Virus record (IMG/VR): IMGVR_UViG_3300008222_000004
DNA length: 7,267 bases
Source: a virus
Direction: 5' to 3' (one strand)
In this document: one piece after another, positions 2,660 through 7,267 of the stretch
Layout of the letters: every line of letters begins with the position of its first letter
Numbering within the stretch: the stretch's first letter is position 1
Made by a program: the position numbers and the translations under genes
Notes under the pieces: generated by a model
Databases searched by the model: none
Seen by the model: the letters and a program-made list of their open reading frames with translations, nothing else
What the model was told of the DNA's origin: nothing

Positions 2660-4149
2660 ACAATTACCACCGCACTCATAGATGCTATCATCATTATTAC
2701 AAGGCCAATCTGACCGTAATACTTAGACCAAGAATCCAACGGACTTGCAACAGTAGTTGTATGACCGCCTTTTGATATCGAAAATCCTAAATCACTGCCA
2801 CCGCCAGAAGAGGTAACATCTACTGTGAAAGATTCCTTTAAATCCTTATAACCGTTTTCTATTGTCGAAGTTAAAAGCGCTTTCTTATCTTCAACTTTTG
2901 TTTTAAATAAAGATAAATCAGAATCACTAAGGGAAATCCTTCCCGAAGGAAGATCAATACCACTAGTCTTGGTTAAGGAAATTTTATCGCTTAATTTATC
3001 AATACCTTCAACAACTTTATCAAGTCCATCTTTTGTCGTAGTATTTAATTTATCAAGTCCATCTTTTGTCGTAGTATTTAATTTATTAAGACCATCTTTA
3101 GTCGAATTATTTAATTTATTAAGACCATCTTTAGTCGAATTATTTAATTTATTAAGACCATCTTCAGTCGTACTTTTTAAATTACTAAAACCAGAAGAAT
3201 TCGTATTTTTTAAATCAACAAGACCATCTTTTGTCGTTGCTTCTAATTTATTAAAATTTGAATTTAATGATTCAAAGCCCAAAATATTCGTTGAATCTAA
3301 ACGCGATAATTTATTAATGATATCCGCATAATCTTGTGATTTATCACCATCGGTACCGCCATCGCCATCAGTACCGCCATCGCCATCAGTACCGCCATCG
3401 CCATCAGTACCGCCATCATTATCAATAAAGCATTTCGTCTTAACTTTATGTGTAGATTCACTGCAAGATATGATCTTAAATGTAAAATTTCTACCGCCAG
3501 CTCTCAAAGCACAATGAGCACGAGCAGAATTTACTTTTTGTCTAGCTTCAGGACCAGCACAATAAGCCCCCTCATCTGGTTTGGTATCACTGTCACCACA
3601 ATTAAACCAACAATCTTCACCAGTTTGACTACCATCAGAACCGCCATCAGTACCGCCATCAGAACCGCCATCAGTACCGCCATCAGTACCGCCATCAGTA
3701 CCGCCATCACCTTTATCAACACAATCAGTAGTTAAGGTTTTTTTTTGCTCATCACAATGGGGCGTAAAAACACTAGTAGAAGGACATTTATTTCGCTCTT
3801 TTTTTATTTCGTTTTTCACGTTATCACTACTACAAAAAAGCTCTTCTGGTTTTTCACAAACCCCCATATCATTAACTTCTTCACCAAAAGGGCAACTACT
3901 GGTATCTTCTGGTTTCACAGTAAATACAGTATTAAACCTATTTTGATACTTAACTGAATCCCCTTTAATAAAATACGATTCACCAGTTGCAGCCCTCATC
4001 TGATATACCCAAGTCTGCATATCAACAGTTGAGCCAACACCTATACCGCCAGAATCCCCGTAATTACCAACATATATAACCTCCCTCAATAAAGCAGAAG
4101 CAGAAAAGGAAAATAAGATTAACATTGAAAATAAAATATTTTTAAACAT
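2644..4149 (-). CDS. pIII-like adsorption / minor coat protein, 501 aa
   Basis: Signal peptide MFKNILFSMLILFSFSASA|LL. Two 6-Cys modules are each followed by a Gly/Asp linker: (GGTD)n at aa 147-173 and (DGGTDG)4 at aa 245-269. An 11-aa repeat array covers about aa 300-377. A C-terminal membrane anchor is IGLVIMMIASMSAVVIVCSKN. SD AGGA lies 5 nt before the ATG. The gene is downstream of the major coat gene, as in Ff gIII and CTXphi orfU. Confidence 0.8.
   Translation of the reverse strand: MFKNILFSMLILFSFSASALLREVIYVGNYGDSGGIGVGSTVDMQTWVYQMRAATGESYFIKGDSVKYQNRFNTVFTVKPEDTSSCPFGEEVNDMGVCEKPEELFCSSDNVKNEIKKERNKCPSTSVFTPHCDEQKKTLTTDCVDKGDGGTDGGTDGGTDGGSDGGTDGGSDGSQTGEDCWFNCGDSDTKPDEGAYCAGPEARQKVNSARAHCALRAGGRNFTFKIISCSESTHKVKTKCFIDNDGGTDGDGGTDGDGGTDGDGGTDGDKSQDYADIINKLSRLDSTNILGFESLNSNFNKLEATTKDGLVDLKNTNSSGFSNLKSTTEDGLNKLNNSTKDGLNKLNNSTKDGLNKLNTTTKDGLDKLNTTTKDGLDKVVEGIDKLSDKISLTKTSGIDLPSGRISLSDSDLSLFKTKVEDKKALLTSTIENGYKDLKESFTVDVTSSGGGSDLGFSISKGGHTTTVASPLDSWSKYYGQIGLVIMMIASMSAVVIVCSKN
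3021..3251. repeat. 33-bp tandem repeat array, about 7 units, inside the pIII-like CDS
   Basis: Units 3021..3053 and 3054..3086 are identical, as are 3087..3119 and 3120..3152. Units starting at 3153, 3186 and 3219 are diverged. They encode 11-aa repeats of the form (N/D)KLN(N/T)(S/T)TKDGL. Confidence 0.95.
3343..3417. repeat. 18-bp tandem repeat (atcgccatcagtaccgcc, about 4 units) encoding the (DGGTDG)4 linker
   Basis: Read directly from the sequence, within the pIII-like CDS. Confidence 0.95.
3631..3711. repeat. 12-bp tandem repeat (gccatcagtacc / gccatcagaacc, about 6 units) encoding the (GGTD/GGSD)n linker
   Basis: Read directly from the sequence. It shares the string ccatcagtaccgccatc with the 3343..3417 array, in the same reading frame. 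Confidence 0.95.
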
Positions 4150-5088: not shown

Positions 5089-5148
5089 GTAACGAATATG
5101 GAACGAATTTGGAACGTATTTGGAACGTATTTGGAACGCTTGGACGGG
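5089..5148. promoter_or_regulatory. Array of about five 11-bp iterons, GGAACG(A/T)AT(A/T)T, probable operator
   Basis: Units are gtaacgaatat (5089), ggaacgaattt (5100), ggaacgtattt (5111), ggaacgtattt (5122), ggaacgctt (5133) and ggacggg (5142). The period is about one helical turn. The array lies between the predicted -10 of the structural-operon promoter and its RBS, and upstream of the divergent RHH gene. Confidence 0.7.
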
Positions 5149-5177
5149 AATATAACAATGAAATTATTAAAACTCAA
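5149..5177 (-). promoter_or_regulatory. Candidate sigma70 promoter of the structural/assembly operon (TTGAGT - 17 nt - TATATT)
   Basis: Read on the minus strand, the -35 TTGAGT is at 5177..5172, the spacer is 17 nt and the -10 TATATT is at 5154..5149. Transcription would start at about 5142 and run straight into the iteron array. Confidence 0.4.
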
Positions 5178-5205
5178 GTATTCTTATTAAAAAGAGGTAT
5201 AAAAT

Positions 5206-5412
5206 TTGTCATATAGTGAAAATGAATATCAAGAAATGATAAAAAGAGATTTAGCTGAAATGTCAAAAATGATGTCAAGCAAAGGAGTAACAACGGTTAG
5301 AATTAAAAATGGAATATATGAAAAAGTAAAAGCAATCTGTGATAAAGAAAATTTAACAGTTGTCGATTATATTAACTCAGCAGTAGCAGAAAAAATCATA
5401 AGCGAAAAGTAG
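5206..5412 (+). CDS. Ribbon-helix-helix transcriptional regulator candidate, 68 aa, the only plus-strand gene
   Basis: The C-terminal half GVTTVRIKNGIYEKVKAICDKENLTVVDYINSAVAEKI fits a strand-helix-helix RHH pattern. It has a TTG start with SD AGAGG about 8 nt upstream. It is divergent from the structural operon and convergent with rep. Confidence 0.55.
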   Translation: MSYSENEYQEMIKRDLAEMSKMMSSKGVTTVRIKNGIYEKVKAICDKENLTVVDYINSAVAEKIISEK

Positions 5413-5422
5413 AAATAATGAG

Positions 5423-5445
5423 CGGGGAGTGGTTTGACCTCCCCG
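5423..5445. terminator. Hairpin between convergent genes, candidate bidirectional terminator
   Basis: The arms cggggag (5423..5429) and ctccccg (5439..5445) are GC-rich, with a 9-nt loop. Both flanks are AT-rich but have imperfect U tracts. It lies between the RHH gene stop (5412) and the rep stop (5456). Confidence 0.55.
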
Positions 5446-7102: not shown

Positions 7103-7144
7103 AATGAATTAAACCTAGAAGCCGTCGAAGCTGTGGTTAATTTA

Positions 7145-7267
7145 AAGTTTTAAAGCGCTATCGGATTGCTGTCTGATAGCGTTTTTTCGTTTTACTCATA
7201 CTACTTAGTAATCAATCATTTCGCAAAATAAATCCATCCCAGTAACAGGCATTCCCTCATAATCTTA
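7145..7267. repeat. Terminal redundancy, copy 2, identical to 1..123
   Basis: Same 123-bp string as the window start. It is not an independent element. Confidence 0.95.

Follow-up and report, generated by a model that had tools for sequence, protein, structure and literature searches.

A candidate ribbon-helix-helix repressor and a tandem 11-bp array between the replication and virion genes of a metagenomic inovirus

What does a small antisense gene do between the replication gene and the virion genes of a filamentous phage, and which protein reads the tandem repeats that lie beside it? These questions are raised by IMG/VR virus record IMGVR_UViG_3300008222_000004, a stretch of 7,267 nucleotides to which we refer as the window. 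Positions 1-123 are identical to 7145-7267, making it a terminally redundant assembly of a circular 7,144-bp genome, with a G+C content of 35%. The window is an inovirus, as it carries Zot/pI, major coat, pIII-like and pVI-like genes together with a rolling-circle Rep gene on a circle of approximately 7 kb. Its long open reading frames (ORFs) are all on the minus strand, in the transcription order rep, g5-like, 79-aa gene, major coat, pIII-like, Ace/pVI-like, Zot/pI and p74 plus p87, and a 68-aa ORF is antisense to every other phage gene. Rep and the gene for the g5-like single-stranded-DNA-binding protein are parted by a hairpin, the plus-strand 68-aa gene and an intergenic region, all three of which had been pointed out in a reading of the sequence alone (the sequence-only reading). 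That reading proposed that the 68-aa protein is a ribbon-helix-helix (RHH) regulator with the 11-bp repeats of the intergenic region as its operator, or alternatively that the repeats are Rep-binding iterons. Our comparative analysis makes it rather probable that the 68-aa protein is an Arc/CopG-type RHH repressor and that the array is its operator.

The array is well defined. Tandem Repeats Finder reported it at 5091-5138, with a period of 11, 4.4 copies, 94% matches and a score of 75. The best array of period 7-15 in 300 dinucleotide-preserving shuffles of the genome scored 52, and 0/300 shuffles reached 75. With at most one mismatch, GGAACGWATWT matched the window at 5089, 5100, 5111 and 5122 only, and not upstream of rep. 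Degenerate units, GGAACGCTT at 5133 and then TTGGACGG at 5140, prolong the array to approximately 5147. It begins 2 bp past the -10 hexamer of a predicted minus-strand, sigma-70-like promoter identified by consensus scan, which also has an extended -10 TG in its spacer, and it stops 6 bp short of GTGAGG, the ribosome-binding site of the g5-like gene. The array is thus predicted to fill the leader of the structural operon, from about +1 to just before that site. The roughly five head-to-tail repeats of the sequence-only reading, and their placement between a -10 TATATT and the ribosome-binding site, were therefore borne out.

In an alignment of four related intergenic regions, three 11-bp units are kept in L085, L079 and L089, as are the -35 and -10 hexamers of the g5-side promoter. 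The conserved blocks of the region in close relatives are the -35, the -10, the units and both ribosome-binding sites, and synonymous divergence (dS) in the adjacent gene is high among the same relatives, at 0.6-2.8. The number of units varies from 3 to 5 among close relatives. One case is L091 (contig Ga0209292_1012160), which matches the window at 99.6% identity along 5 kb and lacks exactly one 11-bp unit of the array; a second unit has one T-to-C change. Its array region, at approximately 2878-3000, corresponds to 5089-5147 of the window, and the lost unit is one of just two gaps in the 5 kb. Unit number is evidently labile, with slippage between near-identical genomes. Apart from this variant, a metagenome scan returned only phages already collected.

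The arrangement is not peculiar to the phage of the window. Relatives of its Rep are encoded on 31 IMG/VR inovirus contigs. Among cultured phages, Pseudomonas phage PMBT54 has the most similar Rep (27% identity), and reference bacterial genomes hold Rep relatives only, at 37% identity or less (in Comamonas, Macromonas, Moraxella, Acinetobacter and others). Nothing in the INPHARED phage collection matched the genome by nucleotide or the 68-aa protein by protein sequence. In L001/L085, L077 and L079, whose Rep proteins are 84%, 74% and 64% identical to that of the window, the small gene of the window recurs in antisense orientation between rep and g5. Every homologue that we found adjoins a divergent intergenic region with short repeats of its own. 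On the contigs long enough to tell, the regulator gene is antisense just upstream of the gene for the single-stranded-DNA-binding protein, and on all of them except L076 its convergent neighbor is rep. Comparison of gene orders with related inoviruses, a step suggested by the sequence-only reading, thus revealed a lineage-wide architecture that includes PMBT54.

In a sister clade, L002-L009 (44-55% identity in Rep), the slot is taken by a different antisense ORF of 59-82 aa with an N-terminal, strand-like K-T-x-R motif. Comparison of the window family with this protein by hhalign detected no homology (probability 0.2%). Farther relatives (L018, L020, L023/L024 and L054) have an antisense ORF of 61-79 aa directly after rep, and no obvious counterpart was found in high-G+C relatives such as L010-L014. 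Some of these contigs have features of their own. In the sister clade, an ORF of 30-33 aa in a different frame overlaps the antisense gene at its 3' end, e.g., at 1260-1361 of L008 (minus strand, locus coordinates). Its products are 50-63% identical, with the pattern ...L.KLAK..KISYRRLKK.L, and it represents either a micro-gene of its own or an extension of the regulator by frameshift. L004 (IMGVR_UViG_3300025738_000082, 13.3 kb) contains two consecutive, non-identical copies of a related inovirus genome, with the g5/g8/g6/Zot set present twice and a Rep fragment at each end; it is a tandem prophage or a replicative-form dimer of two variants, or else an assembly chimera. The short contig L089 is a rearranged or chimeric copy, in which the regulator gene is followed by a C-terminal and then an inverted N-terminal fragment of rep (797-1506).

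The repeats themselves differ between subgroups. Between the start codon of the slot occupant and that of g5, L085, L079 and L089 have three 11-bp units of GTTCCAAAT, L077 and L084 have GTTACA or GTCACA about 11 bp apart, L083 has 2.7 copies of AGTGATGCAAAA with a 12-bp period, L082 has TGATGCAAAT in direct and inverted orientation, and L076 has ACTCGCG as an inverted repeat. In the sister clade, we found 3.2 copies of AGTGATTC in L003 and L004, 3.1 copies of AGTACATCA in L006, two copies of AATCACT in L009, and GTTTCA, both direct and inverted, in L002, L005, L007 and L008. PMBT54 has 3.9 copies of TCGTGTTT at 1765-1795.

We next considered the product of the antisense gene. The L085 and L079 orthologues are 66% identical to the 68-aa protein and have an ATG start codon at the position of the window's TTG. 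In the four-region alignment, the ribosome-binding site of the gene is invariant. With ratios of nonsynonymous to synonymous substitution rates (dN/dS) of 0.08-0.42 against these orthologues, the ORF is, as judged from its divergence, a real gene under purifying selection. The family is small. We scanned 1.8 billion representatives in full with HMMER and then searched 5.8 billion proteins with a profile; this yielded only eight homologue clusters of 62-92 aa, which share the pattern KGTxxVR[IV]K...Y...K..C......Y.N.A.A. A word-indexed search of the 5.8 billion proteins with the single 68-aa protein returned only the self-match.

Profile comparisons point to the RHH superfamily. The 68-aa protein matches PHROG 582, 'Arc-like repressor,' with an E value of 1.3e-7, and 6/8 members of the family match this PHROG; 3/8 match the Arc-like PHROG 3180 and 6/8 the HicB-like antitoxin PHROG 9151. 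In hhalign, residues 28-64 align with residues 9-45 of Arc, in a register that matches the strand and both helices, A and B (E 0.0019, with a probability of 14%). Weak Pfam matches of individual members were to HicB (0.009), RepB-RCR_reg (0.019) and CopG_antitoxin (0.089), and a plasmid database gave only a marginal RelB-antitoxin match (E 0.2). No helix-turn-helix (HTH) profile of Pfam or PHROGs matched the 68-aa protein. We consider the protein a probable, not proven, member of the RHH (Arc/MetJ/CopG) type.

If the small protein reads the repeats, the two should change together. A pair of relatives is informative in this respect. L077 has a Rep 74% identical to that of the window, a regulator only 43% identical and GTTACA-type repeats unrelated to those of the window, whereas L079, with a less similar Rep (64%) and a more similar regulator (66%), has the same GTTCCAAAT units as the window. 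On this comparison the repeat sequence follows the small protein, not Rep. We then looked at residues 28, 30 and 32 of the 68-aa protein, which align with the DNA-reading residues Q9, N11 and R13 of Arc. Where this triad is x-T-R, the intergenic region has at least two copies of GTTYCA (7/7 regions), compared with 0/8 for other triads; the background expectation is 0.13-0.28 copies per region. The triad T-S-R pairs with (A)GTGAT(T/G)CA. Both pairings apply to the window family and also to the sister family, with which it has no detectable homology. The covariation is correlative and suggestive, with few independent lineages and no statistical proof.

Several observations weigh against the repressor-operator interpretation. 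Neither the 68-aa protein nor its relatives reached the gathering threshold of any Pfam RHH family. Sequence searches of the PDB with three alignments gave nothing significant, with Arc at E 0.57 in a profile search. AlphaFold monomer models, with a predicted local distance difference test (pLDDT) of 62 and 74, have no beta-strand; they comprise an extra N-terminal helix of approximately 25 residues and two C-terminal helices, and the expected strand residues 28-34 are coil in one model and helix in the other. Foldseek matches were non-significant, all with E values of at least 2, SvtR, Arc, ORF56, PutA, ParG and NikA heading the lists. The g5-side promoter is a consensus match, and the scan found 2 sites in the region compared with 3.3 expected in shuffles; absent an excess over chance, it is conservation that carries the promoter call. 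The scan found no plus-strand promoter for the regulator gene, and candidates selected manually (TTGGAC-17-ATTATT and TATTAA) were discarded as weak and poorly conserved. One family member, L076, has an inverted repeat and not a tandem array, and the triad-motif concordance comes from few independent lineages. Finally, the regulator and g5 move as a single recombination module, so that covariation alone cannot separate binding by the regulator from binding by the g5 protein. The RHH assignment thus stands as regards the PHROG match and the in-register alignment with Arc, but it reached no Pfam threshold and yielded no confident structure model. As for the operator, a conserved slot, subgroup-specific repeats, residue-motif covariation and repeats that do not track Rep all support it, in a correlative manner.

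Among other explanations, the array might mainly control the regulator's own promoter, or the protein might activate the g5 operon, the effect on the virion genes being secondary or opposite in sign. The RHH regulators Arc, CopG and omega do autoregulate, the array is in a divergent region common to both genes and precedes the start codon of the regulator by 60-115 bp, and no independent plus-strand promoter could be placed. However, a position downstream of the conserved minus-strand -10 is a classic one for repression and speaks against activation, and the repeats of L077 overlap both candidate hexamers (-35 and -10) of its g5-side promoter. We therefore regard this explanation as unlikely.

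Alternatively, the repeats may act as RNA or single-stranded DNA, the unstructured g5 leader being coated cooperatively by the single-stranded-DNA-binding protein in a form of translational autoregulation. The Ff gene V protein acts in this way on gene II mRNA, and T4 gp32 on its own mRNA. Folding of the g5 leader RNA revealed no significant structure (z -0.84), the repeats are wholly within the predicted 5' untranslated region and end at the ribosome-binding site, and the repeat type covaries with the identity of g5 as well as with that of the regulator. Nevertheless, single-stranded-DNA-binding proteins are not very sequence-specific, and yet the units show base-for-base conservation despite near-saturated synonymous sites in the flanking genes. 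The loci L082 and L083, which have the regulator and repeats without a g5-like neighbor, argue against the g5 protein as the reader. In addition, the inverted motifs of some relatives suit recognition of duplex DNA, not of RNA, and the motif tracks predicted beta-strand residues across two unrelated families. A role as RNA or single-stranded DNA is thus quite improbable.

The iteron alternative of the sequence-only reading, in which the repeats bind Rep and enhance the origin as do the 11-bp direct repeats of the bind locus in the pMV158 family, fared worse. Such repeats are Rep-binding sites in some rolling-circle replicons, and fewer than 400 bp separate the array from the 3' end of rep. The comparison of L077 with L079 disfavors it, as the former combines a similar Rep and a conserved region upstream of rep with unrelated repeats. 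That region, approximately 290 nt of non-coding DNA (7103-7144 plus 1-244), is strongly conserved between the window, L085, L079 and L077; it includes a hairpin at 9-40 and the blocks GGTTAATAGTTAGTGATTACGTGTTACAT and GCTAAGATTATGAGGGAATGC, and it probably contains the origin along with the rep promoter and the packaging signal. The array, in contrast, is in a transcribed leader far from it, and its copy number ranges from 3 to 5 among close relatives. We consider Rep binding very improbable. That the protein is the RHH antitoxin of a toxin-antitoxin pair with autoregulatory repeats, as the matches to HicB-like PHROG 9151 and the weak ones to CopG_antitoxin and RelB might suggest, is scarcely credible, because the gene is monocistronic and followed by a hairpin and convergent rep, with no toxin-sized partner ORF in the window or in the homologous loci L076-L089.

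A repressor bound to an operator in the leader suggests the following mechanism. RHH dimers would insert their paired N-terminal beta-strands (residues 28, 30 and 32; V/T-T-R) into successive major grooves, with one dimer per GTTCCA-containing unit. As the 11-bp period is close to one helical turn, the dimers would lie on nearly the same face of the helix and could contact each other, giving cooperative occupancy of approximately 55-60 bp, from about the transcription start of the g5 operon to the g5 ribosome-binding site. Once occupied, the array would prevent promoter escape or elongation, as well as any read-through from rep beyond the hairpin, and thereby shut off the single-stranded-DNA-binding protein, the coat proteins and the assembly genes. 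Rep would keep its own upstream control, through the conserved upstream region and possibly the protein encoded by p87 on the sense strand. The phage would then be maintained as a double-stranded, plasmid-like form that replicates but yields no virions, as expected from established Ff biology, in which no virions are made without g5 and coat proteins. The promoter-distal end of the array abuts the place where the divergent promoter of the regulator must lie, which makes autoregulation likely in addition. DNA binding, cooperativity, repression rather than activation, the uncoupling of replication from virion output and a carrier or lysogeny-like state as the physiological consequence are features that we infer.

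Because the layout recurs across the phage lineage, it probably represents a previously undescribed on/off control of virion production. A more general model can be put forward tentatively, and we would not rate it as high as an even chance. In the Rep_1-type inovirus lineage, which is large, mainly uncultivated and includes PMBT54, a slot of interchangeable, partly non-homologous RHH-like repressors would gate the morphogenesis genes only, via tandem-repeat operators in the leader. It would act as a plasmid-like carrier-state switch with a logic unlike that of CTXphi, SW1 and Pf4, whose repressors are encoded upstream of rep. A beta-strand-to-motif code (T-T-R with GTTYCA, T-S-R with GTGATNCA) would determine which units are read, and slippage of units would tune the set-point. 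If the code is true, changing residue 30 from T to S or Q should shift the preference to GTGATGCA-type or GTTACA-type units.

The features of the window are collected in Table 1. The assignment of the g5-like gene is an inference from its position and from the neighbor in L076, which is annotated Putative_G5P.

Table 1. Features of the window that bear on the putative switch, with the basis of each assignment
Feature	Coordinates	Strand	Basis or remarks
rep, rolling-circle initiator (Rep_1-type HUH, 548 aa)	7102-5456	minus	Pfam Rep_1 E 3.7e-8, just above cut-off
GC-rich hairpin, 7-bp stem, between convergent rep and regulator genes	5423-5445	both	RNA folding
Arc-like regulator gene (68 aa), TTG start	5206-5412	plus	ORF list, dN/dS, PHROG match
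Regulator gene ribosome-binding site AAGAGG	5192-5197	plus	Read directly; alignment of four regions
Predicted g5/structural-operon promoter	5149-5177	minus	-35 TTGAGT 5177-5172, 17 nt, -10 TATATT 5154-5149
Tandem 11-bp array, putative operator	5089-5147		Minus-strand unit CGTTCCAAATA; four good units 5138-5095, degenerate units at both ends
g5-like gene ribosome-binding site GTGAGG	5082-5077	minus	Read from sequence; kept in alignment of relatives
g5-like single-stranded-DNA-binding protein gene (100 aa)	5072-4770, ATG 5072-5070	minus	Position, synteny with relatives
79-aa gene	follows g5-like gene	minus	ORF list
Major coat protein gene (73 aa)		minus	PHROG match to major coat family
pIII-like (g3-like) gene (501 aa), repeat-rich		minus	
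Ace/pVI-like (g6-like) gene (135 aa)		minus	PHROG Ace-like match
Zot/pI ATPase gene (457 aa)		minus	Pfam Zot E 4.5e-45; PHROG Zot-like match

The hairpin between rep and the regulator gene is probably a bidirectional terminator, with folding z scores of -2.5 (minus strand) and -3.5 (plus strand), although a strict terminator scan did not call it. L085 and L079 have different hairpins at this position, and L077 has none.

Outside the region of the switch, the interval between Zot and rep holds a pair of small genes on the sense (minus) strand, p87 (245-508, probable start 460) and p74 (462-686). The p87 protein has an RHH-like N terminus, MAFPLRLDEKQ..., is 62-77% identical to counterparts in L077, L079 and L085, and has a PHROG match of unknown function only; it may be a regulator of rep. 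Palindromes of the form (T/C)TGATATCA(A/T)A are paired at 229-272 and 839-882, inside the two copies (73% identical) of a 44-nt direct repeat on either side of the p74-p87 module, and L077 has ATGATATCAAA at both ends of the equivalent module. They could be operator or recombination sites. We discarded the palindrome TTGATATCAA (229, 262, 839 and 872) as a pC194/phiX-type nick site, the L085 copy being coding only (695) and L079 having none. Upstream of p74, a perfect 21-bp direct repeat, AATCAAAATAGCAATTTGACC, is present in 1.9 copies at 789-828, inside larger imperfect inverted repeats (719-747 with 790-818; 811-876). The pIII-like gene has coding tandem repeats at 3016-3254, 3343-3417 and 3632-3709; a 33-nt unit in 7.2 copies encodes the motif K/N-L-N-x-T-T-K-D-G-L, and units of 12 and 18 nt encode GGTD(G) linkers.

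Filamentous phages shape biofilms, virulence and host physiology largely according to whether they are carried silently or produce virions. To our knowledge, how this choice is made has been worked out only in a handful of models (CTXphi, Pf4 and SW1). If the proposed switch is true, the replicon of the window phage would keep copying while virion output is off, with a control point after rep, unlike that of CTXphi and SW1. An RHH repressor with a tandem-repeat operator would be new in filamentous phages with respect to both its position and its predicted target. As the layout is found in many metagenomic inoviruses and in a cultured phage, the hypothesis is directly testable. The correspondence between residues and motifs would provide a compact natural set for the study of RHH specificity change, and the variation in unit number between near-identical genomes suggests an evolutionary dial for repression strength.

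Parallels are found among small RHH repressors of other systems, which bind arrays of subsites. Arc and Mnt of P22 use a two-stranded beta-sheet in the major groove and bind as cooperating dimers to adjacent subsites about one turn apart, on one face of the DNA. The window protein is linked to them by its 'Arc-like repressor' PHROG match and its in-register alignment with Arc. However, the Arc operator has 21 bp and two subsites, whereas the array has 4-6 head-to-tail units, and the window protein has an extra N-terminal helix, is only marginally similar to Arc and comes from another type of phage. Omega (pSM19035, inc18) and MetJ place one RHH dimer on each short repeat, direct or inverted, with an affinity that depends on the number of units, and among relatives of the window both unit number (3 to 5) and orientation vary. 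The 7-bp heptads of omega and the 8-bp period of the met boxes wind the protein around the helix, in contrast with the 11-bp period of the window, which would keep the dimers on one face. No Pfam or PDB match of the window protein to omega or MetJ was found.

CopG of pMV158 is a 45-aa RHH protein encoded beside a rolling-circle rep gene, and it polymerizes over approximately four helical turns on one face of the DNA. The window family is reminiscent of it through a weak RepB-RCR_reg match in one member and a CopG_antitoxin match in another. However, copG is co-transcribed with repB and its product represses the rep promoter, whereas the window gene is convergent with rep and has the morphogenesis operon as its predicted target. 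We rejected CopG-type copy control on these grounds, given also the hairpin between the two genes and the absence of the motif from the region upstream of rep.

Among filamentous phages, PMBT54 (OR047306) is the nearest parallel in layout, with a Rep_1-type rep gene followed by a 64-aa antisense ORF2, a tandem array and an ssb gene. In a literature search, its genome description was the only paper that bears on an inovirus of this lineage (PMC10534721). The depositors annotated ORF2 as MatP_C, an RHH domain, a match that was not reproduced by hmmscan of ORF2. In the passages on ORF2 to ORF4 of that description, the function of ORF2 is called elusive and related to replication, and neither the repeats nor a role as a repressor is mentioned (PMC10534721). 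PMBT54 differs from the window in that its repeats have an 8-bp period and another sequence, and hhalign detected no similarity between ORF2 and the window protein. A passage of the same paper also notes an omega-like RHH protein, ORF13 (PMC10534721). Its gene (Pfam RHH_9) is located just upstream of rep, where the window has p87; no sequence similarity was found between p87 and ORF13.

The functional counterparts are the repressors RstR of CTXphi, FpsR of SW1 and Pf4r of Pf4. As described in passages of two papers (PMC4762005; PMC8402870), these are encoded opposite the main operon and decide between quiescence and phage production. They are HTH proteins encoded upstream of rep. Those of CTXphi and SW1 target the rep promoter, from which, in SW1, the eight forward genes are all expressed as a single operon (PMC4762005). 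A repressor of this type was rejected for the window, as no HTH match was found and the gene is downstream of rep. The window regulator is instead RHH-like and faces the g5 operon, with rep outside its predicted reach.

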